DNA from: a virus
Taxonomy: Duplodnaviria > Heunggongvirae > Uroviricota > Caudoviricetes
Direction: 5' to 3' (one strand)
DNA length: 12,480 nucleotides
Virus record (IMG/VR): IMGVR_UViG_2548877011_000005
Shown piece after piece: positions 1 through 12,480 of this stretch. The notes below the pieces were generated by a model. That model was not told where the DNA came from, ran no database searches, and worked only from the letters and a program-made list of their open reading frames with translations. The first letter of the stretch is position 1; each line of letters begins with the position of its first letter. Both the position numbers and the translations under genes were made by a program.

Positions 1-1745
1 ACGCCAATCCGGCTGGTTGCCTCCTTCGTGAAGACAAACTCACCACGGTGAACAATCCCCGCTGGCTCATATTTGCCGCCGGTTCCCGTAAATCCTCCGG
101 TTGCAAAATGGAATTTCGCCGCAGCGGCCTGAATGGCTGCCAGCAGGGATTTCTCCTGTGCAGACAGCTGGCGACGTTGCGCCGCCTCCTCCAGTACCGC
201 GAACTGACTCTCCGCCTTCCACAAATCCCGGCGCTGCTGGCTGATTTTCTCATTCGCTCCGCTGTGCTTCTCCAGCGTCCGGAGCTCGGTTTCAAGCGCC
301 AGCAGGGCAGCATGCGCCTGGTCTTCCTGACGCTCACCGGCTGACACTTTGACTCCTGACGACTTCGGCTTTTTCAGCGTCGATTCATAATCCTTTTTCG
401 CCGCCGCCATCAGCGTGTTGTAATCCGCCTGCAGGATTTTCCCGTCTTTCAGGGCCTTATTCAGCTCTTCCTGCCGGTTAGTATATTTCTCCAGCGGCGT
501 CAGCAGACGCTCATACGCCTTCTGCGCCTCTCCGGTATACTTCAGCCGTGATGCGTCCCGTTCGGCCCGGTCCCTGGTAGCCAGTTCACCGGCTTTTTCC
601 ATATCTGACTGCAGCGTGGCCGCTGCCAGCCCCAGACGGGCATTTTCCCGGTCATCCCATGCGCCCTGCAGGTTGGCACGGAAAGAGGAGGTCTTTCCCC
701 GGCGCTGGCTCCGGCTCTGGTACCACTGCCATTTTTTATCCGCCTCATCGAATGCCTTCTGCGCACTGGCAAGCATATCCGCTGAGGATTCCGGACGACC
801 AATATCCAGAATGGCATCCCACATCGATTTGAACGCCTTCCCTGTTTTATCCGCCCAGGTCTCCAGCGTCCCCATGTTTTCTTTCAGGCGACGGGTCTGC
901 TCATCAAAGCCTTTCGTGGCGATATCGTTCGCCGCCTGTAAGGCCCCGGCCTCATCACCGGAACGCTGCAGCTGCGCAACAAACGCAATCTGCTCTGCCG
1001 TCACGTTACGGAACTGGCGCGCCATCGCAATCAGCCCCGACGTAGGGTCGGTGGTCAGTTTTCCGAAAGCCTCTGCAACCTTGTCCACCTCCACACCGGA
1101 TGCAGAAGCAAAACGCGCGACACTCTGGTTGATGGCATCAAACTGTTCACCACCACGCACACCGGCATTCACCAGGGCTGCCAGTGACTCACTCGCCTGG
1201 TTAAACGTCAGCCCTGCGGCCTGTCCGGCTCTGGAGAGCGTCAGCATGCGATCGGCAGTCAGTCCGGACTGATTACCGGAAAGAACCAGGGTTTTATTAA
1301 ACGCTGAAAGCGTGGAATCCCCCCGGTACCAGGCGTACGCCAGCGCACCTGTCGCCACCGCCAGCGAGGTGACCCCGACCATCGGCAGGGTGATCGCACC
1401 GGCAAGCCCCCTGAACATGGGGATCATCCCGCCGAAGGAGTCCTTCACCTGACCGCCCTGTTGCAGCAGGATCAGCCAGGGATTCTGACCACCGGCAAGC
1501 TGCGTGGCGATATCCGTAAACTGTGCGGGCAGGGTTCGCATGGCCGCTTTATACTGCCCGACGGAAATCCCGGCTTTTTGTGCAGCCAGCGCCTGGCGGC
1601 TCAGGCCCTGTTCAACAGCACTGGCGGTTTTTCTGGCGTCAGTCTCCAGTCCGGAAAAATGACGCCTTACCCGGCTCATCTGCTCATCGAAACGGACCGC
1701 ATCCAGACTCAGGTCAACGACCAGATCGCCTACCGGTTCAGCCAT
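1..1745 (-). CDS. H: Tail tape measure protein gpH, N-terminal 581 codons only; 3' end lies beyond the window start
   Basis: ATG at 1745-1743 (minus) overlaps the T stop at 1738-1740, as in the lambda T/H junction. The minus-strand frame stays open to position 1, which is why no complete ORF appears in the track. Translation begins MAEPVGDLVVDLSLDAVRFDEQMSR... and a checked stretch (1461-1550, reverse complement) gives AAMRTLPAQFTDIATQLAGGQNPWLILLQQ, matching lambda gpH as I recall it. Confidence 0.9.
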   Translation of the reverse strand, partial: MAEPVGDLVVDLSLDAVRFDEQMSRVRRHFSGLETDARKTASAVEQGLSRQALAAQKAGISVGQYKAAMRTLPAQFTDIATQLAGGQNPWLILLQQGGQVKDSFGGMIPMFRGLAGAITLPMVGVTSLAVATGALAYAWYRGDSTLSAFNKTLVLSGNQSGLTADRMLTLSRAGQAAGLTFNQASESLAALVNAGVRGGEQFDAINQSVARFASASGVEVDKVAEAFGKLTTDPTSGLIAMARQFRNVTAEQIAFVAQLQRSGDEAGALQAANDIATKGFDEQTRRLKENMGTLETWADKTGKAFKSMWDAILDIGRPESSADMLASAQKAFDEADKKWQWYQSRSQRRGKTSSFRANLQGAWDDRENARLGLAAATLQSDMEKAGELATRDRAERDASRLKYTGEAQKAYERLLTPLEKYTNRQEELNKALKDGKILQADYNTLMAAAKKDYESTLKKPKSSGVKVSAGERQEDQAHAALLALETELRTLEKHSGANEKISQQRRDLWKAESQFAVLEEAAQRRQLSAQEKSLLAAIQAAAAKFHFATGGFTGTGGKYEPAGIVHRGEFVFTKEATSRIG

Positions 1746-2576
1746 ACCGGACTCCTCCTGCGATCCCTTCTGATACTGTCATCAGCATTACGTCATCCTC
1801 CGTCATGTCCGCCACATCCGGGGAAGCGGGGATAACTTCATTCCCGTCCGGGCCAAAGCGGACACCTCCGGCAAGCCCTGCCGCTTTCTGCATCAGCACA
1901 TCATCTTCAGGCTCTTCGTCAGCCTCGCGCCGGTTAAGCAGACTGAAATCCAGCGGATGCATATCCGGATCGCTGAAAAACAGGCTGAGCACGGTGTACG
2001 TCAGCCCGGAAAAGTGCATATCCAGCAGAACATCATGAAAATAATGGGTACTGTAAAAGCGGTGCCAGTCGGCATACTCCGTGGATGACATCCCGGCAAG
2101 CATGGCACGCCAGTCGGGTCGCCCCATCTCACGCGCCAGTTTCAGGGCAAAACTCAGCTCACCGTCGAACACTTTCCCGCAGAAACAGGCTCTGCAGGCC
2201 CGGCGTCCTCTGTCTGTTCAGGGGCATTATTCACCACAAACTCATACATACCGGACAGCCGGTACACCACGTTTTCAGCATGAGAAATTGCCTCCGTGGG
2301 CCAGGTGGTAAGCACTTCCTGCTCAATTTGTTTAACGGCTTCATTCATGGACGGCATCTGCGTCTTCTGCGGATGGTTATGCCACAGGGACATCGCCACC
2401 AGAAACGCGCCGGTTCTGATGGCGTCTTCCACAGTAAACTTCCGATTGCTGTCTGACTCCGCCTGTTCTGCCTGCCGTTTCATCAGGGCGAGATGCTCAA
2501 TACGCTGCAGGGCTGACAGTTCAGAAAGCGTGACGGTCACACCGTTATGTTCAAATGATTCGGTTTTCAGGAACAT
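1738..2576 (-). CDS. T: Tail assembly chaperone fusion gpG-T, made by programmed -1 frameshift at the slippery heptamer 2172-2178; the T part (1738-2172) has no start of its own
   Basis: Track ORF 1738..2172 (MFDGELSFALKLAREMGRPDW...) lies in the -1 frame relative to G and overlaps its 3' end. The heptamer G GGA AAG sits in G's zero frame exactly at the overlap. The arrangement matches the lambda G/GT frameshift. Confidence 0.8.
2154..2576 (-). CDS. G: Tail assembly chaperone gpG (140 aa)
   Basis: Track ORF with ATG at 2576-2574; GGAGAG Shine-Dalgarno upstream; lies after the V stop (2592-2594). Translation MFLKTESFEHNGVTVTLSELSALQRIEHLALMKRQ... matches lambda gpG from memory. Confidence 0.93.
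   Translation of the reverse strand: MFLKTESFEHNGVTVTLSELSALQRIEHLALMKRQAEQAESDSNRKFTVEDAIRTGAFLVAMSLWHNHPQKTQMPSMNEAVKQIEQEVLTTWPTEAISHAENVVYRLSGMYEFVVNNAPEQTEDAGPAEPVSAGKCSTVS
2172..2178 (-). other. Programmed -1 ribosomal frameshift slippery site GGGAAAG (X XXY YYZ)
   Basis: Plus-strand ctttccc at 2172-2178 is GGGAAAG on the minus strand. In the G frame the codons are GGA (2177-2175) and AAG (2174-2172); a -1 slip gives GGG AAA GTG TTC GAC, i.e. ...K V F D G E L S F, which is the start of the T ORF. Confidence 0.8.
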
Positions 2577-2591
2577 CTCTGACTCTCCGGA

Positions 2592-3332
2592 TTAACTGGC
2601 GGTGACGGTGATTTCTGCAACCGCAGCAAACTCACCATTACCGGATACGACCGGAATGTTGACCTTACCTGCAGCAACGCCATTCACGGTGATGGTCATA
2701 CCACTGACCGACACGGTGGCTTTTGTTTTATCCGCTGACACCGCACGGAAGCTCTTGTCGGTTGCGCCTTCCGGCTGGAAGGCCACGGTCAGCGTGGTGC
2801 TCTTCCCTTTCACTACGGAAGCGCTGGCTGGCGTCACGGTCATGCCGGTTGCCGCTGTTACCGTGCTGCGATCTTCTGCCATCGACGGACGTCCCACATT
2901 GGTGACTTTCACCGTGCGGGTGATCACTTCCTTCGCCGTCACCGCCTTACCGATACTGCTGACCCAGCCACGGAACACATCGACCGTGCCGTTCGGGAAG
3001 CGGATTTTATAGGCACGGGTATCGCCTTCATTAAACCACGCCAGCAGCGCCTGCTGCCCCTGCTCTCCGGGCATCCACGCCAGCGTGAAGCTGGTATCTC
3101 CGGCAGATTTCTGCCCCTGCCCGGTCGCGGTCCAGTCTGCATCTTCATCATCGAGATAGCTGTCGTCATAGGACTCAGCGGTCATCTCGCCCGGCGTCAG
3201 ATCCTTCACCTTAGCCAGTCGCTGCCAGTCATCGTCTGACAACGGGTTTGCATAAGCATCACCCTTGCCGTTGTAAACCCACAGAGTGGTACCGGCACCT
3301 TTTACCGGCTCAAGGGGATTTGGTGTTGCCAT
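2592..3332 (-). CDS. V: Major tail tube protein gpV (246 aa) with C-terminal Ig-like (Big_2) domain
   Basis: ATG at 3332-3330 preceded by GAGGA. Translation [36 protein letters not shown]... matches lambda gpV; the C-terminal ~90 aa ([20 protein letters not shown]...AEITVTAS) has the Big_2-type Ig-like pattern. Confidence 0.95.
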
Positions 3333-3339
3333 ATCGTCC

Positions 3340-3735
3340 TCACATCTCGTATGTAATGGAATAAGTCAGATCTGCAGAACTCCACAATGCCATATCGTCA
3401 TCACGACGATAGTCATAGCCCTGCGTAACCATCGTGGTAATCAGTCCTACCAGTGCCGGGATCGCGGTCATCGCCGGATAAATCCGGCTTTCCATCCACG
3501 AATCCAGCTCTGAATCCGGTACCTGTGCCGGTAAAAACACCTCAATATGCAGTGTGGCCCGCCAGGTATCTGCATCCAGCTCTTCACCGGTATACTCTGC
3601 ATCCGTCAGATAAACCGCGATCGCAGGAAAATCCTCTTCGTCAAAAACAACGGGGCGACCATCAAACAGCGTCGCCCCGTGTTCATGCTGCTCGAGTGCA
3701 TCCAGCACTGCCGCACGGATATCAGTATGTTTCAT
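3340..3735 (-). CDS. U: Tail terminator protein gpU (131 aa)
   Basis: ATG at 3735-3733 overlaps the Z stop (3734-3732) as ATGA. Translation [36 protein letters not shown]...[10 protein letters not shown] matches lambda gpU. Confidence 0.93.
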
Positions 3736-4307
3736 CGTTTTATCGCAATCCTCAGCTGTTGTTTCAGCGCGTATGCCAGTTCTCCGGGCAGACGTTCACG
3801 CCGGATACGGTCAACGTTTTCATCAAACGCCTGTTTCAGTGGGGCCGCCATCGGGATTTTCACCACCTGAATAGGAAGGCGATTACGCTTTTTCCTGCCC
3901 TTGTCGTCATTGCCCTTCTCATATCTGGCCTGGGGAAGACGTTGCATAACATGCCAGCGCCCATTATTTAATCGCTGGATAAATGCCCGCTGATAACGAT
4001 GCTGACCGGCTTTGAGTATGCTGTTCGGACGACGCCTCAGCATTCTGATCCCCAGCTTAATCACAGGAAGATCACCGCGGTTAACGATAATTTTTGCATT
4101 CGGATTTCTGACCGTGGCCCGTTTCAGTCTGGACCGTTCCTTAACCAGTTTCCGTCTCACCCTGGTTTCCCGGGCAACCTGTGATGAAGACTGATTAATC
4201 GCCGTTGTGGCCACGCGGTTAATGGTCATTGCAGAAGCCGCCGGAATGGCGTTTTTACGAACCCGGCTCAGATTATCAATCGCCTGCTCAAGCCCTTTTA
4301 TCGCCAT
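3732..4307 (-). CDS. Z: Tail completion protein gpZ (191 aa)
   Basis: ATG at 4307-4305. Translation MAIKGLEQAIDNLSRVRKNAIPAASAMTINRVA... is lambda gpZ-like, and the gene sits between FII and U as in lambda. Confidence 0.9.
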   Translation of the reverse strand: MAIKGLEQAIDNLSRVRKNAIPAASAMTINRVATTAINQSSSQVARETRVRRKLVKERSRLKRATVRNPNAKIIVNRGDLPVIKLGIRMLRRRPNSILKAGQHRYQRAFIQRLNNGRWHVMQRLPQARYEKGNDDKGRKKRNRLPIQVVKIPMAAPLKQAFDENVDRIRRERLPGELAYALKQQLRIAIKR

Positions 4308-4322
4308 AATTTCACCCTGCGT

Positions 4323-4676
4323 TTATCGTCGCCGGTTAACGGCGGGTGGTTGCCCACGGTTGAGCCAGAGATAACAGCTGCCCCCGTCATCCGGAGAAAC
4401 ACGATCCACCCAGAACGTCTCACCATTAATGGTCAGCGTGTCACCACGCCGCACAGCACGAACCGTATCCGTCCGCACAAATAATGACGGGCTGCTTCCT
4501 TCAATACGGACCCCGCTACCGGCAAATCCCAGCGACTCCGGATCGTCAAAAACCCCCTGAACTTCTCCGCCACACTGTGCCCCCGAGGTGAACTGTGCAC
4601 AGAGCCCCATCACTTCAACAATCGTACTGTCCAGCCCGGCAAGGGCAGCATCAAAGGCATTCTGAAAATCACGCAT
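4323..4676 (-). CDS. FII: Head-tail joining protein gpFII (117 aa from the ATG at 4676)
   Basis: Track ORF 4323..4712 trimmed to the ATG at 4676-4674, giving MRDFQNAFDAALAG..., which aligns with the lambda FII N-terminus and abuts the FI stop (4669-4671). The C-terminus ...VDRVSPDDGGSCYLWLNRGQPPAVNRRR is lambda FII-like. Confidence 0.85.
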   Translation of the reverse strand: MRDFQNAFDAALAGLDSTIVEVMGLCAQFTSGAQCGGEVQGVFDDPESLGFAGSGVRIEGSSPSLFVRTDTVRAVRRGDTLTINGETFWVDRVSPDDGGSCYLWLNRGQPPAVNRRR

Positions 4677-5043
4677 AAACAGCCATTCCGCCATCAACGT
4701 GTGTTTTTGCATCTGAGGACATAATCAGAATCACCCGACCAACATCCGCAAGCTCAACGGATTCCCCTGTTTCACCATCAATGCCACAGAGATGGAGGCA
4801 GGTCAGAACTCTGATGCGCGTTAACGCACCGGATGTATCCTCACGAACATCATGAGCCGCGGTTTCCCGCTCCCGGATCACCGTATCCCCAACCTGAACA
4901 TCCTCGCCGGATGACTGTATTTCCTCTTCCCATTCCGCCACCCGCTGCGCTATCTCTGCGGCACTCCCGGATATATCCGGCTCACGCCCCAGAATCAGGG
5001 CCAGTTCATCAAGCCGTTTCAGATTTTGCTCTTTCGTTGCCAT
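4669..5043 (-). CDS. FI: Head DNA-packaging/stabilisation protein gpFI-like (124 aa from the ATG at 5043)
   Basis: Track ORF 4669..5091 trimmed to the ATG at 5043-5041 (MATKEQNLKRLDELALILGRE...), preceded by a G-rich Shine-Dalgarno (CAGGGGGCTGAT ATG). The longer reading would run through the hairpin after E. Position and acidic composition fit lambda FI. Confidence 0.72.
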   Translation of the reverse strand: MATKEQNLKRLDELALILGREPDISGSAAEIAQRVAEWEEEIQSSGEDVQVGDTVIRERETAAHDVREDTSGALTRIRVLTCLHLCGIDGETGESVELADVGRVILIMSSDAKTHVDGGMAVYA

Positions 5044-5057
5044 ATCAGCCCCCTGTG

Positions 5058-5086
5058 AAAAAAGACACGGGGGCATTTCGCCCCCG
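5058..5086 (-). terminator. Candidate intrinsic terminator or attenuating stem-loop after E: 7-bp GC stem (CGGGGGC/GCCCCCG), 5-nt loop, then UGUC and U6
   Basis: Minus-strand reading of 5086-5055 is CGGGGGCGAAATGCCCCCGTGTCTTTTTTCAC, lying between the E stop (5095-5097) and the FI start (5043). The U-tract is 4 nt from the stem, so this is not a textbook terminator. Confidence 0.35.
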
Positions 5087-5094
5087 CTCACGGA

Positions 5095-6123
5095 TTATTT
5101 CACCTGTACCACCACAAACTCATCCGGGTCCGGCAACACCATCAGCGGCGCGGACTGCGTCATGGTAAATTCACGGGCGGGATCCCCCACCGTCAGCCAG
5201 TGTTTCGGATAACGGGAAGAGGCCACCACACCTTCGGACAACGCCTGCGCATCCTGAATGGCACCGTAACAACGGATCCCATCTGCAGCAGTATTCCCCA
5301 AAACCAGCATGCCCTCCGGCAGATAACGTTTTTCGATACCGTCTTCTGCTATATAAGACGTTTTCGCCACCACAATGGCCAGATCGCCGTAATACCCCTT
5401 GAAGGACACCACTGCGCCCAGATCTTTCACTGCCGTTTCGAGTTGAGAATTTGAACCGCGACGGGTATCCAGTTTTTCGCGGAACAGCTTAAAACCATTC
5501 AGAAGACGCCAGACGGTACCGTCCATAATGGCAATATTCACAAGACCGCTGGCCTGGTCGCAGTAGAGGTCAAGATCATGTGTAGGATCGAACGTGTCAC
5601 GATCCTGTTTTGACCACTCCTTACCACTACCCTGAGTGATGTTATTCTTCGTCGACCTGCCAAAATCGACCTCAATTTTCTCGAACTGGTCTCCTTCCAT
5701 CGTATATTTGCCATACAACACAGCATTTACCGCCTGTATTTCTTCCACCTGGACAATCGCGTGCTCTTCCTGTTTGAGGTTATCGGTAATGATACGCAGA
5801 CGGCGGTAAGCCGGATCGTTCAGTTGAGCCGGATCTTCACCAGGAAGGCGCTCAACCGCCTGCTGGTAATTAAATTCGTGTTTCGGCTTGACGTAGCCCG
5901 GACGTAACACGCGGGTTTCACCACCACGATGACGCAGCACTTTTCCTTCAACAACCGGGGAGACATAGGCCGCCACCGGCGTTTTTCCGGTAATTTTGTC
6001 CAGCATCACCTCTTCGGTATGGAAATTCACCGTACGGCGGAAAAACAGCTCCAGAAACAGCGCACGAAATTTCACTTTTTGTTCGGTATAACCGAGTAAC
6101 TGGCGGGTCGTAAACAATCCCAT
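5095..6123 (-). CDS. E: Major capsid protein gpE (342 aa)
   Basis: ATG at 6123-6121 with AAAGGAA upstream. Translation MGLFTTRQLLGYTEQKVKFRALFLELFF...REFTMTQSAPLMVLPDPDEFVVVQVK resembles lambda gpE throughout, though clearly diverged. Confidence 0.95.
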   Translation of the reverse strand: MGLFTTRQLLGYTEQKVKFRALFLELFFRRTVNFHTEEVMLDKITGKTPVAAYVSPVVEGKVLRHRGGETRVLRPGYVKPKHEFNYQQAVERLPGEDPAQLNDPAYRRLRIITDNLKQEEHAIVQVEEIQAVNAVLYGKYTMEGDQFEKIEVDFGRSTKNNITQGSGKEWSKQDRDTFDPTHDLDLYCDQASGLVNIAIMDGTVWRLLNGFKLFREKLDTRRGSNSQLETAVKDLGAVVSFKGYYGDLAIVVAKTSYIAEDGIEKRYLPEGMLVLGNTAADGIRCYGAIQDAQALSEGVVASSRYPKHWLTVGDPAREFTMTQSAPLMVLPDPDEFVVVQVK

Positions 6124-6151
6124 AAATCAGTTCCTTTCATTCAGAAATCAG

Positions 6152-6173
6152 TCAGGCCACCGCGGTGGCCTGA
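6152..6173. repeat. Perfect 22-bp palindrome TCAGGCCACCGCGGTGGCCTGA in the D-E intergenic region; function unknown
   Basis: Read directly: 6152-6162 tcaggccaccg is the reverse complement of 6163-6173 cggtggcctga. It lies between the D stop (6181-6183) and the E start (6123); no adjacent U-run. Confidence 0.9.
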
Positions 6174-6180
6174 TAACGTG

Positions 6181-6528
6181 TTACGGCAGCGCCGCGTGAC
6201 TCAGGGCACTGCCGGCAAAGGCATTTGCCTTTTTGTGTTCATCCACACTTTCAGGCCAGCGGATTGCCTCCGTCGCAAAGGTCCCCGACTTGTAATAGGT
6301 CAGTACCGTCTCTGTGCCTTCAAGCGGCAGTACCAGTATGCCAACTGCACTACCGGCTTTCTGTCCGTCCCAGACCACCAGTTTCCCGCTGGCTTCATCC
6401 AGCATCAGGGGCGTCAGTGCCGGTGTTGCCGAGGAAATCCCGCTGCTGCCTGTGGCGGTATGAGCCGGATCATTACCGGCAAAAATACGTACTTCCGCAC
6501 GCTGTTCAGTGATGGTTTTCGTTACCAT
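6181..6528 (-). CDS. D: Head decoration protein gpD (115 aa)
   Basis: ATG at 6528-6526 with AGGAGG upstream (plus cctcct 6541-6546). Translation contains DPAHTATGSSG...TPLMLDEASGKLVVWDG...YYKSGTF...KANAFAG, matching lambda gpD motifs. Confidence 0.93.
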   Translation of the reverse strand: MVTKTITEQRAEVRIFAGNDPAHTATGSSGISSATPALTPLMLDEASGKLVVWDGQKAGSAVGILVLPLEGTETVLTYYKSGTFATEAIRWPESVDEHKKANAFAGSALSHAALP

Positions 6529-6564
6529 ATTGTAAAAACCTCCTGTTGATGGTCAGCACTGACT

Positions 6565-7167
6565 TCATGGCATAGCCATGAGCATTTTCACGTCCGCATC
6601 ACCGTCTGCTGACGTCTGTGGCACGCCACCCTGTACCGCTGCCGGTGAATGGTTCGCCATGATGCGTTCAAACAGGGCGGTTGTGGATGCAGAGACCGGT
6701 TCTGCCTTACCTGATCCCGCAGCCAGCACAGCCCGGGCGCTCTCCACAGTCATTCCCGGGCAGGCAGCCAGCTGTTCAGCCTGCGCCTCAGCCCCTTTTG
6801 CCTCATCCAGTGCCATGATCTGATCACGGAGTGAGGGTCCGGCATCCGCCTGCGGTGAAGCAGCCAGGATCGGGCGGGCTTTTTCCACCGTCATCTCCGG
6901 CATCGCCGCCAGCGTTGCCGCCAGTTGTTCACGACCGTTCGCTTCTTCACACGCCATAATGCGATCGGCTTCACTCTGCGTGGATGCCACCGGCTGCTGC
7001 GGTGCCGCCGCGGCCAGAATCGCCCGGGCCTGTTCAACGCTCATGCCCTGTTGTCCTGCCAGCATCGTGGCAAGCTGTTCACGTCCTTTCGCTTCCTGGC
7101 ATGTCAGGATCCCCATCACTCGCTGGTTCTCCTGCGCGGCGGCTTCCGTTGCAGTTAATTGCGGCAT
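6565..7167 (-). CDS. Nu3: Nested in-frame scaffolding protein (Nu3-like, 200 aa) from an internal start inside C
   Basis: In-frame ATG at 7167-7165 (Met302 of C) preceded by a strong Shine-Dalgarno, minus-strand CAGAGGAGGCACT ATG (plus cctcct 7172-7177). Lambda has the same arrangement: Nu3 shares frame and stop with the 3' part of C. Confidence 0.6.
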   Translation of the reverse strand: MPQLTATEAAAQENQRVMGILTCQEAKGREQLATMLAGQQGMSVEQARAILAAAAPQQPVASTQSEADRIMACEEANGREQLAATLAAMPEMTVEKARPILAASPQADAGPSLRDQIMALDEAKGAEAQAEQLAACPGMTVESARAVLAAGSGKAEPVSASTTALFERIMANHSPAAVQGGVPQTSADGDADVKMLMAMP

Positions 7168-8070
7168 AGTGCCTCCTCTGACATTACTGTTCAGCGCCGT
7201 GGCCATCACACTGATGGCATCCGACGCATTGACTAATTCATCCGCCAGCCCGGCATCAATGCCGGACTGACCTTCAAAAACGGCGGCCTCTGTTCCCGTG
7301 ACGGCATCAACAGACAGACCGGTAAACATCGCCACTTTTTCGGCAAACATCCGGCGCGCCGCATCAATGCGCTGCTGCATGTCCTGGCGAACCTCTGCCG
7401 GTAAGGCTTCAAACTGATTGCCATCCACCTTGTGCGCCCCTGAGTAAATCAGCGTGATATCCACACCGGCCTGCGCCAGATGACCGGCATAGCTGACATG
7501 GCTCATCATCACGCCAATGGAGCCGATACGGGATGTCTGGGTAACCAGCCGTCGGGAGCAGGCCGACGCCAGCAGCATGGCTGCAGAACAGGCCGTGTCA
7601 TTGCACAGTGCCCAGACCGGCTTCTGCTGACGGAGGCGGTAAATCATGTCAGCGCAGTCAAACGCGCCGGCGGCCTGCCCGCCCGGACTGTCAATGTCCA
7701 GCAGTACGCCCCGCACCTGGCTATCCGCCATTGCCTGCTGAAGACAGGCGACAATACCGTCATAGCCTGTCATTCCGGAAAATGGCCGCATACCCCCCAG
7801 CCGGTGCACCAGCGTGCCGGTCACCGGCAGTACAGCAATACCGTTCACCACCCTGTAAACACGGGCCGGTCGTTTACCTCCGGCCATGTACTCGTCCGTT
7901 TCAGCCAGCATTCCGGGAGCATCAAACTGTACCTGCTGTTGTGGTACCGAAAGACTTGCTGCCCCCATCTCGCGCCCGAGCGCGCAAAAGAAAACCCGCG
8001 CATAGGCGGGCTCCAGAAGCAGCGGTTCATTGAATGCTGCGGCAATAATGTGTGAAAGATTACGTCTCAC
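6565..8070 (-). CDS. C: Prohead protease / scaffold gpC (S49 ClpP/SppA-like peptidase domain, 501 aa), GTG start
   Basis: Track ORF starting at GTG 8070-8068, overlapping the B stop (8060-8062), with GAGGAG upstream. N-terminus MRRNLSHIIAAAFNEPLLLEPAYARVFFCAL matches lambda gpC; central region ...VWALCNDTACSAAMLLASACSRRLVTQTSRIGSIGVMMSH... is the S49 peptidase core. Confidence 0.92.
   Translation of the reverse strand: MRRNLSHIIAAAFNEPLLLEPAYARVFFCALGREMGAASLSVPQQQVQFDAPGMLAETDEYMAGGKRPARVYRVVNGIAVLPVTGTLVHRLGGMRPFSGMTGYDGIVACLQQAMADSQVRGVLLDIDSPGGQAAGAFDCADMIYRLRQQKPVWALCNDTACSAAMLLASACSRRLVTQTSRIGSIGVMMSHVSYAGHLAQAGVDITLIYSGAHKVDGNQFEALPAEVRQDMQQRIDAARRMFAEKVAMFTGLSVDAVTGTEAAVFEGQSGIDAGLADELVNASDAISVMATALNSNVRGGTMPQLTATEAAAQENQRVMGILTCQEAKGREQLATMLAGQQGMSVEQARAILAAAAPQQPVASTQSEADRIMACEEANGREQLAATLAAMPEMTVEKARPILAASPQADAGPSLRDQIMALDEAKGAEAQAEQLAACPGMTVESARAVLAAGSGKAEPVSASTTALFERIMANHSPAAVQGGVPQTSADGDADVKMLMAMP
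6709..7122 (-). repeat. Three tandem, diverged copies of a ~37-53 aa module (~111-159 bp) in the scaffold region of C/Nu3
   Basis: Protein copies: RVMGILTCQEAKGREQLATMLAGQQGMSVEQARAILAAAAPQ (from aa317), RIMACEEANGREQLAATLAAMPEMTVEKARPILAASPQ (aa370), IMALDEAKGAEAQAEQLAACPGMTVESARAVLAAGSG (aa418). DNA copies are visibly related at about 6730-6830, 6840-6965 and 7000-7120. Confidence 0.75.
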
Positions 8071-9652
8071 GGGGTGTTGTCTCCTCTTCCGGCCTGCGAC
8101 TCTCCGCTATCTGCTGCTGATACGCCTGCGCTATCCACACCGGACGTGAGAGTCCGGCTTTTTGCCGCTCTGCAGATTCCCTGACCTGCTGGCGGAAAAT
8201 GTCCTGATAATCCTCGCCCATCAGCGCCAGCTCTTTCTCATACGTGCTCAGTCCGGCCTCAATGCGCATCACCGATTCCTGAACCTCCTTGAGCCCGTCA
8301 ATGGCCATTCTTCCGGCACCAATCCACTCTGCCCGTGACCAGGCTGATCGCGCCTGATAAAAATCAAAACGCGCCCGTGGCGGACGGATAATCCCCCGAA
8401 GAAGTGCCTCTTCCAGCCAGCAGGAAAACATCTGCGTGGCCAGCCGGGCCGCAATAAATTTTCGCCGCCCCATAAAATAGCGCCACGACTCATTGGCAGA
8501 GGCCCTGGCACTTGAATAACTGACCTTCGAGTAATCACGGGACAACTGTTCGTAGGAAACGCCAAGACCGGCGGCGATATACCGCAGCAGCGCCTGTTCA
8601 AGCGCCGAAAATCCATTGTCTGAATCCTGCGCAGTCTGTAGTTTCAGATCATCCCCGGGGAAAAGGTGCGGAATTTTGACACCGCCCAGCGTCACGCTAT
8701 TCGTGTCATACCAGGTGGAGAACTTATCCAGAATATTAATAAGCGGATTATCCTTCTGCCCCTGCGGCGCACCGGCGATATATTCAAAGGCCTTTTCGGT
8801 ATCAAGTTCACTTTCAATCGTCGCTGCATACATCGCCTTCACTATGGCCGACTGAAGCTGTGTTGCCTGCAGGGAATCGAGCATCTTCAGCCGTTCCATG
8901 ACGCTGTAAAACTGATTAGCCCCACGGGTCTGCCCGTCCTCCACCGGCTCGAAAATATGCAGCATGGCCGGACGCCCGGTGGGAAGTTCACGCGGGATCC
9001 GTTCCCATCGTCCACTCCCGGAGCGAGGAAAATCATCCTCACAGATATGGTACGCAACGGCACGGCCATATCGATCGACCTCCACCCCGGCCCGCAGAAA
9101 ACGGTTCCCCATACCGTGTCCTGGCGTGTCCACCCGTTTCGGACTCACGGCTTTAAAACGCGTACGGAATAACTGCGTGGTTTCCGTATCCCAGACCGGC
9201 TGCACAAAGATTTCGCCGTTAAACGCATGAACGCCCACACCTTCACGGATAAATTCCGTGAACGTGCGTTTTCCTTCCACGTCGATCTCGCCAGACATCC
9301 CTTCTGCGTATTCTGACCAGGCCGCCTCCACCTCATCGACAAAACTTTTTGCCGCGGTCTCCCGCATCCCCAGCCAGCGCCAGTTCGGACGGTAGCTAAT
9401 CAGAAACATATGCCCGACAATGTGATCCTTATGCAGGGCCACCGCATTGGCCGCTATTCCGTTATTGCGCACCAGATCATCTGCACGGGCATTCCCCAGA
9501 CGCAACGCGGGCAGCAGGGCCGCATCGGCACTCTGCGCCGGTGGCAACCACTCTGCCATTTGCCCGCCAAATCCTGCACCGCCACCGTTGTAGCTGAGGC
9601 TCTCCCGAAGCGGAACGCCGTTCACATCAATCAGGACAGGCGTTCGTTTCAT
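8060..9652 (-). CDS. B: Portal protein gpB (530 aa)
   Basis: ATG at 9652-9650 overlaps the W stop (9651-9649) as ATGA. Size and position (between W and C) match lambda gpB; translation MKRTPVLIDVNGVPLRESLSYNGGGAGFGGQMAEW... is portal-like. Confidence 0.95.
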   Translation of the reverse strand: MKRTPVLIDVNGVPLRESLSYNGGGAGFGGQMAEWLPPAQSADAALLPALRLGNARADDLVRNNGIAANAVALHKDHIVGHMFLISYRPNWRWLGMRETAAKSFVDEVEAAWSEYAEGMSGEIDVEGKRTFTEFIREGVGVHAFNGEIFVQPVWDTETTQLFRTRFKAVSPKRVDTPGHGMGNRFLRAGVEVDRYGRAVAYHICEDDFPRSGSGRWERIPRELPTGRPAMLHIFEPVEDGQTRGANQFYSVMERLKMLDSLQATQLQSAIVKAMYAATIESELDTEKAFEYIAGAPQGQKDNPLINILDKFSTWYDTNSVTLGGVKIPHLFPGDDLKLQTAQDSDNGFSALEQALLRYIAAGLGVSYEQLSRDYSKVSYSSARASANESWRYFMGRRKFIAARLATQMFSCWLEEALLRGIIRPPRARFDFYQARSAWSRAEWIGAGRMAIDGLKEVQESVMRIEAGLSTYEKELALMGEDYQDIFRQQVRESAERQKAGLSRPVWIAQAYQQQIAESRRPEEETTPRET

Positions 9653-9855
9653 AACCTCACTCCCAGCGGACGACGGCGACGGCGGGTTGTCCCCAGTACC
9701 GACTCCGCATCATTGATCGCCCGGTTAAGCTCATCCAGAGAAGCTGCCGTATATTCAATTCTGCGACCATCTTTCTGGACAGACACCACCCGTTTACCGG
9801 TTAATAAATCAAGGCGCGCCTGACGCAGCGCCTGCAGTTCAGCGACTGTAACCAT
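9649..9855 (-). CDS. W: Head-tail joining / DNA stabilisation protein gpW (68 aa)
   Basis: ATG at 9855-9853 with GGAGGAG upstream; overlaps the A 3' end by 17 nt. Translation [40 protein letters not shown]... resembles lambda gpW (TGKRVATVQKDGRRVEF). Confidence 0.9.
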   Translation of the reverse strand: MVTVAELQALRQARLDLLTGKRVVSVQKDGRRIEYTAASLDELNRAINDAESVLGTTRRRRRPLGVRL

Positions 9856-11767
9856 TCACTCCTCCGGACAGCTTCGCTGCCAGTTCTTTCAGGGTTGGCC
9901 GGGTCGTCTCTTCTTCCCGGGATTTTGCCAGTACAGCCAGATCAAGCTGCCAGCGTTGCACGGACACACGTAATGCCGCGTAGGCATACACCAGGCAGTC
10001 CAGCGCTTCGTTACGCCGCTTTTTGTTATCCCACAGCAGACGCATCTTTCCTTTTTCCCACTTCTCCACAAGCTCTTCCGCCACCAGTTGCTGCGCCTCT
10101 GTCTGCGAAAAAATCTCCGGATCATCAGGAAAACGGATGGCATACGACGTGGCTTCATCCGCAGGCGTGGGATCGGCTTTCATACGGGCATAGAGAATTT
10201 CTTTTGCGGTGTCCGTCCCCACTTCGCACAGATACACGCCCCACTGATTGCGGGTTTTTGGCATGGTGATCACCGGCTTGCCATAAACAGATGCACCTTT
10301 TACCGGCAGCACCCGGAAAACACCGTGTTTTTTTGACCTCTGATAGACAATTTCGCCATCGATCCCCCCGGTGTCCCAGCAGACACGGGAAATGGTCATT
10401 TCGGTTCCGTCTGCATGGCGGTATTTTTTGTTGATCGCCACATCCACACGTAACAGCGTCTCTTCCTCATCAGGACGCCCCATAATGATGATTTTATCCA
10501 CCAGAAAGGCTTCCTCTCCCGGAGCCCATCCCCAGACATACATCTCAAAACGGTTTCGCTGCGAGTCAATGCCCGCCGTCAGATAAACCACTCGGGAAGG
10601 CACCGCAGCCGTGTAACGCACAACCTTATCCATCAGCACCTGGTGATCGAGTTTTTCGCCCACGGCCTCTTCCCAGGTCTCGCCCAGCGTGGTGTTCACA
10701 AAGGTTTTCAGGCCGTTGGGATCTTTCAGTGCATCCAGCCAGTCATAGACAATCTGTACCCAGGTGGTGAACGGACTGTACGCCGTCCAGATATGGAATG
10801 TGATGGAGCGCGGCGGCGGAATTTCATCACCCCGGGCGCTGAAAAACATCAGGCCGTCACGGGTCCACATGCCCGTGTTTTCACAGATCCACCGCCCGTT
10901 ACTCTGGTCAAGCTCAGACTGATGGATCACACAGCCATGATGCTCACAAAGGTAGAAAACACTTTCTGGCTTATTCTTCTCCCACTTAAGACCGAAAGGC
11001 GAGGCATCATCGCCAAATTTCAGATACTGCTCCTCCCCACAGTGCGGACAGGGCACATAAAAACGCATGAAGTGTGCCGACTCGTTAGCGGCTTTTTCGA
11101 TCTGGCAGGAGCCTTTGATTTTAGGCGTCGAGCCGCGAATGGATTTTGGCCATACAGAGCCCTCAATACGTTTATCCCCCAGCAGGGTTGGCGAACCCTC
11201 TTTTTCAACATCCGGTTCGAACGAGGAAAGCTCGTCATAACAGACCACATCCACGGATTTTTCACGGTAGTTTTTTGCTGCCGCACCACCCAGACACCAG
11301 AACCCCACACCGGAGGAAAAACGCTTCAGGGTGAGCGTATTATCGCGGTGTTTTCTTCCGAACCATGGAGCCAGCTCCAGCAATGCAGGAACATCCCTTA
11401 TCGTTGGCTCAACATGAGATTTCATAAAATCTTCAGCAGCTGAGTCCGTGGGCTGAAAAAGAAGGCTGTTGCGTGATTTATGCTCAATAAAATAAGCCTC
11501 CACTCCCAGCAACATCTTTGTATAACCAACACGGGCAGATTTAATCAGGTTAACCGTGCGAATCAGATCGTTGCCCATACAGTTCATGATGCCAACCTGA
11601 AACGGCAGTGTTTCCCACCGCCCCGGGGTATAAGACGACTCTTTAGGAAGGTAATAATGTTTATTGGCCCACTGAACTGTCGTCAGTGGAACAGGAATAA
11701 TGAGAGATAAAAGCCCTGTAGCTATCGCACCGGCTGCATTAGCTGCCTTCTGCGCGTCTGAAATCAT
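9839..11767 (-). CDS. A: Terminase large subunit gpA (642 aa from the ATG at 11767; track ORF extends to 11809)
   Basis: Lambda gpA-like along its length ([72 protein letters not shown]). The ATG at 11767 has a GGTGGA Shine-Dalgarno and gives the same N-terminal length as lambda before YYLPKES; overlap with Nu1 is then 29 nt. Confidence 0.93.
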
Positions 11768-12287
11768 CGATCCACCCGCCCACGTTTTCACCGGCCTTAG
11801 CTGAAACATTGGAGGCTTTCGCGATTTCAGTTTTCACCACATCAAGGTGTGATGGTGAAATGTCCGGATATTTACGCTGTAATGTCAACGGCACACGCAC
11901 AAGTATCCCCGAAATCTCCTGTGCCACACGTTGTAGAATGAAGGTAAACAGTTCAGTTTCCAGCACTACTCCGTCTTCACGGGCATTTTTCAGTTCCTGC
12001 GCATCTGCCTGCGCTTTTGTGAGTCGGTAGCGTTCATAGTCAATGGTGCCGGGTTGTAAATCTGACTCCGCTGCCGCACGCAAATCGTCCAGTTCTTTGC
12101 GGAGCTTTTCGTTTTCGATATCAGTTTCCCTCTGCGCATACCACTGAATTGCCATGGCAGTATCAAATACAGATTCAATGCCCTTACTACCTTTGGAGGC
12201 GCAAGGGAGTCCCTGAGACTGCCAGCGTTCAATCGTCCGCGGGTCCACGTTGAAAATTTCGGCAAGCCTCTTTTTATTAACCTTCAT
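11739..12287 (-). CDS. Nu1: Terminase small subunit gpNu1 (182 aa), N-terminal winged-HTH DNA-binding domain
   Basis: ATG at 12287-12285, about 190 nt from the cohesive end as in lambda. Translation [28 protein letters not shown]...[28 protein letters not shown] matches lambda Nu1 (MEVNKKQLADIF...RTIQNWQEQGMP...). Confidence 0.93.
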
Positions 12288-12315
12288 GAAAACAACCCAT
12301 TATCAAATACAAGGC

Positions 12316-12326
12316 CCGACATGAAA
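12316..12326 (-). promoter_or_regulatory. Candidate terminase small-subunit binding repeat, R1-like position (ccgacatgaaa)
   Basis: Forms an 11-bp perfect inverted repeat with 12354-12364; about 151-161 nt from the cohesive end (lambda R1 is ~150-165 as I recall). Confidence 0.45.
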
Positions 12327-12353
12327 ACGCCAGAAAAAGGCATTTTCGGACAC

Positions 12354-12364
12354 TTTCATGTCGG
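12354..12364 (+). promoter_or_regulatory. Candidate terminase small-subunit binding repeat, R2-like position, inverted (tttcatgtcgg)
   Basis: Exact reverse complement of 12316-12326; about 113-123 nt from the cohesive end. Confidence 0.45.
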
Positions 12365-12416
12365 ACCTTTACGGATGCAATATTAAAGAAAAACAAAAAG
12401 TTATATTCGAGAAGTA

Positions 12417-12429
12417 CCGACACGATTTT
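12417..12429 (-). promoter_or_regulatory. Candidate terminase small-subunit binding repeat, R3-like position (ccgacacgatttt; partial match)
   Basis: Shares CCGACA-GA with the 12316 copy in the same orientation; about 48-60 nt from the cohesive end (lambda R3 is ~50-65 as I recall). Confidence 0.3.
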
Positions 12430-12464
12430 CCCTGAAAAATTTTCATAAATAGTGAAAAACCGCG

Positions 12465-12476
12465 AGGTCGCCGCCC
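12465..12476 (-). other. cosN: 12-nt cohesive-end sequence GGGCGGCGACCT (minus-strand reading), the terminase nicking site
   Basis: Plus-strand aggtcgccgccc at 12465-12476 is the reverse complement of the lambda cohesive end GGGCGGCGACCT. The following minus-strand bases (CGCGGTTTTTCACTATTTATGAAAATTTTTCAGGG) stay close to the lambda left end as I recall it. Confidence 0.85.
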
Positions 12477-12480
12477 CGTA

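Follow-up and report, generated by a model that had tools for sequence, protein, structure and literature searches.

Our analysis of a 12,480-nucleotide stretch of DNA from a Caudoviricetes virus (IMG/VR record IMGVR_UViG_2548877011_000005; hereafter the window) revealed a prohead protease/scaffold gene of the gpC/Nu3 type whose C-terminal part contains three tandem units, R1, R2 and R3, of one protein module. We consider it very probable that the gene is a phage-21-type gpC/Nu3 allele carrying three ancient duplicates of the module, and that the units are three-helix mini-domains acting as multivalent protein-binding modules, a binding role that we infer. The triplication as such adds nothing new: it is already known, having been annotated in phage 21 for three decades, since the early 1990s, in the GenBank feature table of M81255.1, and the allele is very common in E. 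coli prophages. What is new here is the prediction of a three-helix fold, the presence of the module once in most S49 prohead protease/scaffold proteins, and a set of natural copy-number alleles.

Gene context and the nested scaffold

A lambda-like (phage-21-like) genome is represented in the window by its left arm, extending from cos/Nu1 through FI, FII, Z, U, V and G/T into the tape-measure gene. On the minus strand lie ORFs for Nu1, A, B, C, D/shp, E, FI, FII, Z, U, V, G and T; this series is collinear with the annotated genes of phage 21, and the gene order Nu1-A-W-B-C-D-E is that of lambda. C/Nu3 sits in this lambda-order head operon between the portal gene B (8060-9652) and the decoration (D, 6181-6528) and major capsid (E, 5095-6123) genes, with cos/Nu1 at 11739-12287 and gene A at 9839-11809, all on the minus strand.

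In the list of open reading frames, the gpC-type prohead protease/scaffold fusion occupies positions 6565-8070 on the minus strand (501 aa, GTG start). The ORF matches PHROG 53, 'head maturation protease' (E=3e-228), and its S49 peptidase domain (7192-7635, minus strand, aa 146-293) matches the Pfam family Peptidase_S49 (PF01343) with 120.7 bits against a cut-off of 24.9 (E=7e-35). The serine of the CSA motif, which is the nucleophile in the S49 family, is conserved (ACSAAMLL in the window's gpC, NCSAGQLL in lambda). The lambda-type gpC/Nu3 family is characterised by a C-terminal module with the consensus ER.RI.gIl.cEEAKGRE.LA..LA..pGMtVE.Ak.ILAAaP and, behind it, a tail of about 35-70 aa; both are present in the window's gpC, in which the unit profile has three matches with E values from 1e-19 to 1e-27.

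Within this ORF, a strong Shine-Dalgarno sequence that can be read directly in the DNA (GAGGAGG, 7172-7178, minus strand) lies 4 nt 5' of an in-frame ATG (7165-7167). Initiation at 7167 is predicted to yield a Nu3-type scaffold of 200 aa (6565-7167, minus strand, M302-P501) identical to the C-terminal part of gpC. In phage 21, the counterpart of the 501-aa ORF is gene 5, and that of the nested scaffold, the sequence of which is wholly common with the C-terminal part of gpC, is gene 6, whose product is annotated as 'gp6 / scaffolding protein'. Both M81255.1 and the complete phage 21 genome of 2022 (OL657228.1) annotate an internal ribosome-binding site and start for the scaffold gene, and the gene 6 ribosome-binding site lies at the same GAGGAGG in both records. 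The window's internal ATG also corresponds in position to the starts that lambda, N15 and phi80 have at an internal GG[RT]M.

Annotations of the scaffold start disagree among these phages. In N15 and phi80 (L004/L005, 1345-1758) and in phage 21, the scaffold is annotated from the conserved GG[RT]M site (window 7167), whereas RefSeq lambda nu3 starts at gpC residue 239, inside the protease domain, and is 201 aa long (NC_001416, L003 1133-1738); the GG[RT]M site is residue 309 of lambda gpC and would give a scaffold of about 131 aa. At the other end of the gene, the GTG start of C overlaps the final 11 nt of the portal gene (8060-8070), an arrangement of the same kind as in lambda, where the overlap is 20 nt, and consistent with translational coupling. 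Two antisense ORFs (6578-6823 and 6959-7270) are unsupported and were taken as by-products of the G+C-rich coding strand.

Three diverged units under purifying selection

An earlier note on this DNA, made from its letters and open reading frames, had described three tandem copies of a motif at 6709-7122. That interval corresponds to aa 317-454 and falls inside the three units as delimited here, all of them encoded on the minus strand: R1 (aa 312-358, 6997-7137; AQENQRVMGILTCQEAKGREQLATMLAGQQGMSVEQARAILAAAAPQ), R2 (aa 365-408, 6847-6978; QSEADRIMACEEANGREQLAATLAAMPEMTVEKARPILAASPQA) and R3 (aa 412-458, 6697-6837; PSLRDQIMALDEAKGAEAQAEQLAACPGMTVESARAVLAAGSGKAEP). In local alignments with BLOSUM62, the units score 83-101 against one another, compared with 24 +/- 5 for shuffles (z = 12-16), and none of 2000 composition-preserving shuffles reaches the observed score. 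Between units, 19-23 residues are identical over 36-37 aligned, and 16 columns are invariant among R1, R2 and R3. The copies are hence homologous to each other, as the note had supposed.

Could the repeat nevertheless be an artefact of composition, in a low-complexity region rich in Ala, Gln and Glu? The region is Ala-rich, the low-complexity filter of BLAST trims the AAAAP end of the unit, and no tandem repeat is detected in the DNA. Shuffles that preserve the composition never match the observed scores, however; a search of 1.84 billion representative proteins with a three-unit profile retrieves 475 at E<=1e-3, and unit positions are orthologous across lineages. Shuffles, profile search and cross-lineage orthology together refute this explanation.

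The triplication is visible in the protein only, not in the DNA. The 102-nt cores of the units are 59-67% identical, Tandem Repeats Finder run on the DNA reported no array, and direct repeats are limited to seeds of 12-15 nt at a spacing of 141-156 nt, in agreement with the earlier observation that the DNA copies have diverged. Because synonymous sites between the units are saturated (pS 0.64-0.74) while dN/dS for the three unit pairs is 0.08, 0.20 and 0.31, we conclude that the unit duplications are old and that each copy is under purifying selection.

R3 departs from the other units at a conserved position. In the phage 21 clade it reads KGAEAQAEQ (6760-6780, aa 428-434), as opposed to KGRExLA in nearly all other units, and the nearly invariant arginine of the family-wide KGREQL is accordingly gone from the window's R3 (KGAEAQ). 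R3 retains GRE in Gifsy-1 and in the more distant three-copy proteins P0121, P0123 and P0124. The highest dN/dS values (0.20-0.31) occur in the comparisons that involve R3. Such a pattern would fit a third unit that, in the phage 21 clade, is diverging in function or has become relaxed; with the arginine of R3 lost, the three units need not be equally functional.

Relation to phage 21, Gifsy-1 and lambda

The window's C gene shows 98.7% nucleotide identity to phage 21 gene 5/6 over 1506 nt, and 98.7-98.8% DNA identity to gene 5 of phage 21 and about 17 other isolated E. coli phages. Genes 5/6 of phage 21 (M81255.1; OL657228.1), encoding the head-tail preconnector gp5 and the scaffold gp6, share the 501 aa, the internal start, the ribosome-binding site and the unit positions with the window and differ by point changes only, such as IMVCEEA for the window's IMACEEA, and AMFEHFM for ALFERIM in the tail. 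The M81255.1 record ('Bacteriophage 21 head gene operon') marks three segments of gene 6 as repeat_region, all of them noted as 'function unknown; putative': the 'Tri1 box' (gene nt 971-1074, window 6997-7100) within R1, the 'Tri box' (gene nt 1111-1221, window 6850-6960) within R2, and the 'Tri3 box' (gene nt 1252-1365, window 6706-6819) within R3. The original phage 21 head-gene paper is reportedly that of Smith and Feiss in Gene, 1993.

The gpC homologue of Gifsy-1 (STM2605.Gifsy1, 498 aa), whose record itself refers to phage 21 gp5/gp6 in its annotation, has three units in the same order, encoded by a gene with about 71% nucleotide identity to that of the window; its R3 keeps the canonical KGREEL, unlike the window's R3. 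Across lineages, R1 units score 148-185 against each other and 78-102 against R2 or R3, and in Gifsy-1, as in representatives with an overall identity of only 46-60%, each unit is the orthologue of its counterpart (R1 of R1, and so on). The triplication is therefore older than the split of these three-copy lineages.

Lambda gpC/Nu3 (NC_001416 lambdap05/06), N15 gp5/gp6 and phi80 gpC/gp6 share with the window the S49 protease, the nested in-frame scaffold and the gene order. They differ in the number of units: an HMM of the unit detects a single match each for lambda, N15 and phi80, with three for phage 21 as for Salmonella Gifsy-1. Lambda gpC (NC_001416) contains exactly one unit, ENSRIMGILNCEEAHGREEQARVLAETPGMTVKTARRILAAAP, followed by a homologous tail (ALDRLM...LLNTPV), in agreement with the single such segment that the earlier note gave for lambda Nu3. 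All of the window's units are homologous to the lambda unit (z = 13-23); R1 is the best match, with a score of 129 (z=23) and 29/46 identities. The lambda unit scores 121-129 against R1 units and at most 110 against R2 or R3, and R1 is, judged by these scores, the orthologue of the single lambda unit.

Do the extra copies account for the larger protein, as had been proposed? They do so in part. The two additional units contribute roughly 100 aa, but this gain is offset by a spacer between scaffold start and module that is about 36 aa shorter in the window (10 aa, compared with a Ser/Thr/Ala-rich spacer of 46 aa in the lambda type), leaving a net difference of 62 aa. The scaffold measures about 131-137 aa in lambda, N15 and phi80, against 200 aa in the window.

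The suggestion of a fourth, degenerate copy starting at ERIMANHSP (aa 468-476) did not survive the comparison. This segment has a z of about 0 against the units and a negative bit score with the unit HMM run without filters, and we rejected it as a vestigial repeat; it aligns to the tail that follows the single lambda unit (TALDRLMQGAP). An 'aLDxxM' motif comes after the module in most single-copy members of the family, and by this alignment ERIMA is a conserved, family-wide post-module tail motif and not a repeat. The C-terminal tail as a whole (6568-6696, minus strand, aa 459-501) is homologous to the lambda tail (z=2.8 in direct comparison). It consists of a short helix, TALFERIMAN, and then a Gly/polar stretch ending in VKMLMAMP, and is predicted to be disordered, with low pLDDT in the AlphaFold2 model of the 200-aa scaffold.

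Predicted fold of the unit

Given an alignment of 72 diverse units, AlphaFold2 models the single unit R1 as a compact three-helix bundle (pLDDT 94.7, pTM 0.78), in which residues 2-15, 24-31 and 38-47 are helical and 18-20 form a short turn. In a model of the entire 200-aa scaffold, built from a shallow alignment, the helical units reach a pLDDT of 73-80 and the linkers stay below 60; the pTM of 0.25 implies no fixed arrangement between units, which would resemble beads on a string. Each unit is thus predicted to be an autonomous three-helix mini-domain, with flexible linkers of 6-12 residues in between. Near-invariant across the 72 units are the hydrophobic helix positions (I, A, L) and the E, A, G and R of EAKGRE, in the segment between helices 1 and 2.

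In a library of viral structures, the only good matches were instances of the same module in S49 peptidases (TM 0.89-0.90), from Salmonella phage 37, Synechococcus virus S-ESS1 and one uncultured siphovirus. Sequence searches of the PDB with Nu3 and with the 72-unit profile found no relatives, the sole match being a designed repeat protein (E=0.0025). Staphylococcal protein A, with its tandem three-helix-bundle binding modules, and the albumin-binding GA module may be structural analogues only. The P22 scaffold and herpesvirus UL26/UL26.5 are functional analogues, in which a small helical C-terminal element is shared by, or delivers, internal procapsid proteins. The herpesvirus protease and scaffold (UL26/UL26.5) have a common C-terminus through nested genes. 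Unlike the P22 and herpesvirus elements, that of the window is a predicted three-helix bundle and is repeated, and the helix-turn-helix at the C-terminus of the P22 scaffold, like the herpesvirus element, matches the window's module neither in sequence nor in fold. Small C-terminal helical elements of scaffolds bind coat protein in other phages, for example P22 (PMC11565965). The title of a 2011 paper, as it appears in the reference list of the same article (PMC11565965), calls lambda gpNu3 intrinsically disordered.

One may also read the unit as a helix-hairpin-helix nucleic-acid-binding motif, with the array binding DNA. The PGMTVEQAR.ILAA motif does look like a hairpin-helix, and a weak Pfam HHH match covers aa 427-450 of R3 (E=0.093). 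This match is confined to R3, though, and its 13.1 bits compare with a gathering threshold of 24 for PF00633, so that we regard a helix-hairpin-helix as effectively excluded.

Distribution of the module and natural copy-number alleles

How common is the three-unit form? Of 5426 complete E. coli genomes, 1870 contain the 606-nt Nu3 part, nearly always as one uninterrupted full-length match; it is 100% identical in E. coli O121 RM8352, and the exact 501-aa protein occurs on 93 public contigs. In the family at large, by comparison, a single copy is the norm for most S49 prohead protease/scaffold proteins: among the best 150 representatives of the 475 retrieved by the profile, 133 have one unit, as do 53 of 55 full-length proteins (those with at least 380 aa). 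Typically, an S49 domain is followed by a linker of variable length and sequence, a single module and a tail of 35-70 aa, and stand-alone, scaffold-sized proteins of 100-200 aa carry the module as well. By tblastn, the module was found in 138 phage records, with hosts that include E. coli, Vibrio, Aeromonas, Burkholderia, Xylella, Stenotrophomonas, Providencia, Proteus and Clavibacter; the number of matching places per record is unfit for copy counts, with R2 and R3 falling below the threshold or being trimmed by the low-complexity filter. Multi-copy forms comprise the phage 21/Gifsy-1 lineage, near-identical and recent tandem arrays (P0130, P0133, P0134), and an independent two-copy protein (P0167).

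Within the set of the 120 closest homologues, recombinant alleles were found in E. coli and Shigella. Two units are present in a 451-aa allele, as an R1/R2 hybrid plus R3, and in a 452-aa allele, from which R2 has been precisely deleted. Alleles of 472 and 482 aa have lost half of R2 and hence have 2.5 units, a 551-aa allele has four units with an R3/R2 hybrid, and one protein, a 657-aa form, contains a larger internal duplication. The 2-, 2.5- and 4-unit alleles are attributed to in-register recombination. The 482-aa allele is found on at least 1000 contigs, and R2 may be dispensable, half of it being deleted in this common allele. In the collection of isolated phages, those that carry the window's allele at full length all have the 1506-nt three-unit form, bar one record of 1500 nt. 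Three of the related sequences look like assembly or gene-calling artefacts: P0001, the 657-aa form, with a 156-aa internal duplication that takes in the units as well as the end of the protease domain; P0126 (192 aa), in which the units are fused to a Gly/His-rich, tail-fibre-like sequence; and P0243 (258 aa), in which alanine is systematically replaced by valine, along with other substitutions, as from an error-laden read.

These alleles bear on the earlier proposal that the duplication is old and probably maintained. Its age is borne out by the saturated synonymous sites and by the orthology of the units in distant lineages. Maintenance is supported by the low dN/dS values of the units; the number of copies is not strictly kept, given the natural alleles with 2, 2.5 and 4 units.

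It is conceivable that the units are mostly inert spacer or filler that adds length or volume to the scaffold core, with a copy number that drifts by unequal recombination. Such a role would accommodate a natural copy number of 1 to 4 or more, the loss of the conserved arginine from R3, and the longer Ser/Thr/Ala-rich linker of single-copy proteins (46 aa in lambda, 10 aa in the window), which suggests a partial compensation of length. Yet each unit is under purifying selection (dN/dS 0.08-0.31) despite saturated synonymous sites, and is confidently predicted as a folded domain; moreover, in the EAxGRE loop the polar residues E, G and R, for which a spacer would have no need, are near-invariant across the 72 units. 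We therefore consider an inert spacer quite unlikely and favour protein-binding modules.

Proposed function of the modules

We propose the following model for the role of the units. The modules would be protein-protein interaction domains common to the protease and the nested scaffold, through which scaffold and protease may associate with each other, with the portal and the inside of the shell under assembly, or with both; the protease would thereby be co-packaged with the scaffold. The presence of three modules in each chain would confer multivalency, with an avidity effect, and would not serve as a length ruler; a precise ruler function is disfavoured because 1 to 4 units are tolerated in nature. 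The Nu3 part is the only sequence common to C and Nu3, and since the nested scaffold and the protease share it, this region is a natural candidate for a co-assembly element. For lambda, interactions have been recorded between Nu3 and Nu3, Nu3 and C, Nu3 and E, and Nu3 and B (PMC3224144). By analogy with the scaffolds of P22 and herpesviruses, it could equally be the extreme C-terminal tail that binds the shell, while the modules provide for self-association of the scaffold.

The modules may instead regulate or process the protease, docking on the S49 domain in an auto-inhibitory or substrate-presenting manner, with the linkers as sites at which gpC cleaves itself and the scaffold. Lambda C may degrade Nu3 before packaging, and a C-Nu3 interaction is on record (PMC3224144); in addition, the module occurs almost only beside S49 domains or, from the same genes, in proteins of scaffold size that are nested or stand alone. 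On the other hand, the scaffold product has the module without having the protease domain, and no recurring cleavage-site motif is found in the three linkers (PQQPVASTQSEA, PQADAGPSL and SGKAEPVSASTT). On balance, a regulatory role toward the protease strikes us as unlikely, and binding modules shared by scaffold and protease remain our preferred reading.

What would be the relevance of the number of units? That it could affect procapsid assembly or protease packaging, as the earlier note proposed, is speculative. We speculate, tentatively, that the module is a folded, autonomous binding domain as opposed to a disordered scaffold segment, and that its copy number possibly sets the valency of scaffold and protease toward the shell or toward each other. 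If this were true, the natural allelic series (one unit in lambda, N15 and phi80; 2, 2.5 and 4 units among E. coli prophages; and, for phage 21 and Gifsy-1, three) would represent an unexploited system for relating scaffold valency to procapsid nucleation, protease dosage and head-size fidelity. In a Nu3 scaffold that is otherwise variable, this element is the only part to be widely conserved. Together, the predicted fold, the wide single-copy presence and the alleles with 1-4 units make it approachable to ask which part of the scaffold binds and whether valency matters, a lead that is modest and incremental.

Further features of the window

Relative to the phage 21 genome (OL657228.1, locus L007), the window is a mosaic: the head genes (4051-12476) are 97% identical and the tail genes (139-3875) only 86%. 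Within the tape-measure gene of phage 21, 575 bp (L007 140-714) are without a counterpart in the window, whose tape measure is therefore about 190 codons shorter than that of phage 21, and its tail presumably shorter too. Position 12476 of the window aligns to base 1 of the phage 21 genome, the cohesive-end nicking site, so that the window ends 4 nt past cosN. Upstream of Nu1, positions 12288-12480 hold the cosB region (comprising, in the phage 21 annotation, an IHF site and elements likewise called R1-R3).

In the OL657228.1 record, the scaffold gene also contains annotated 'CII binding sites' (TTGY N6 TTGY), which correspond to window positions 6915-6928 and 7149-7162 on the plus strand, antisense to Nu3; one of these falls within unit R2. 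The pattern is low in information, and the sites in Nu3 are probably chance matches. Finally, a slippery heptamer, GGGAAAG, lies at 2172-2178 (minus strand), at the overlap of a G-like ORF (2154-2576) and a T-like ORF (1738-2172). It fits a programmed -1 frameshift of the lambda type that would lead to a gpGT tape-measure chaperone, and phage 21 is annotated with the joined product.
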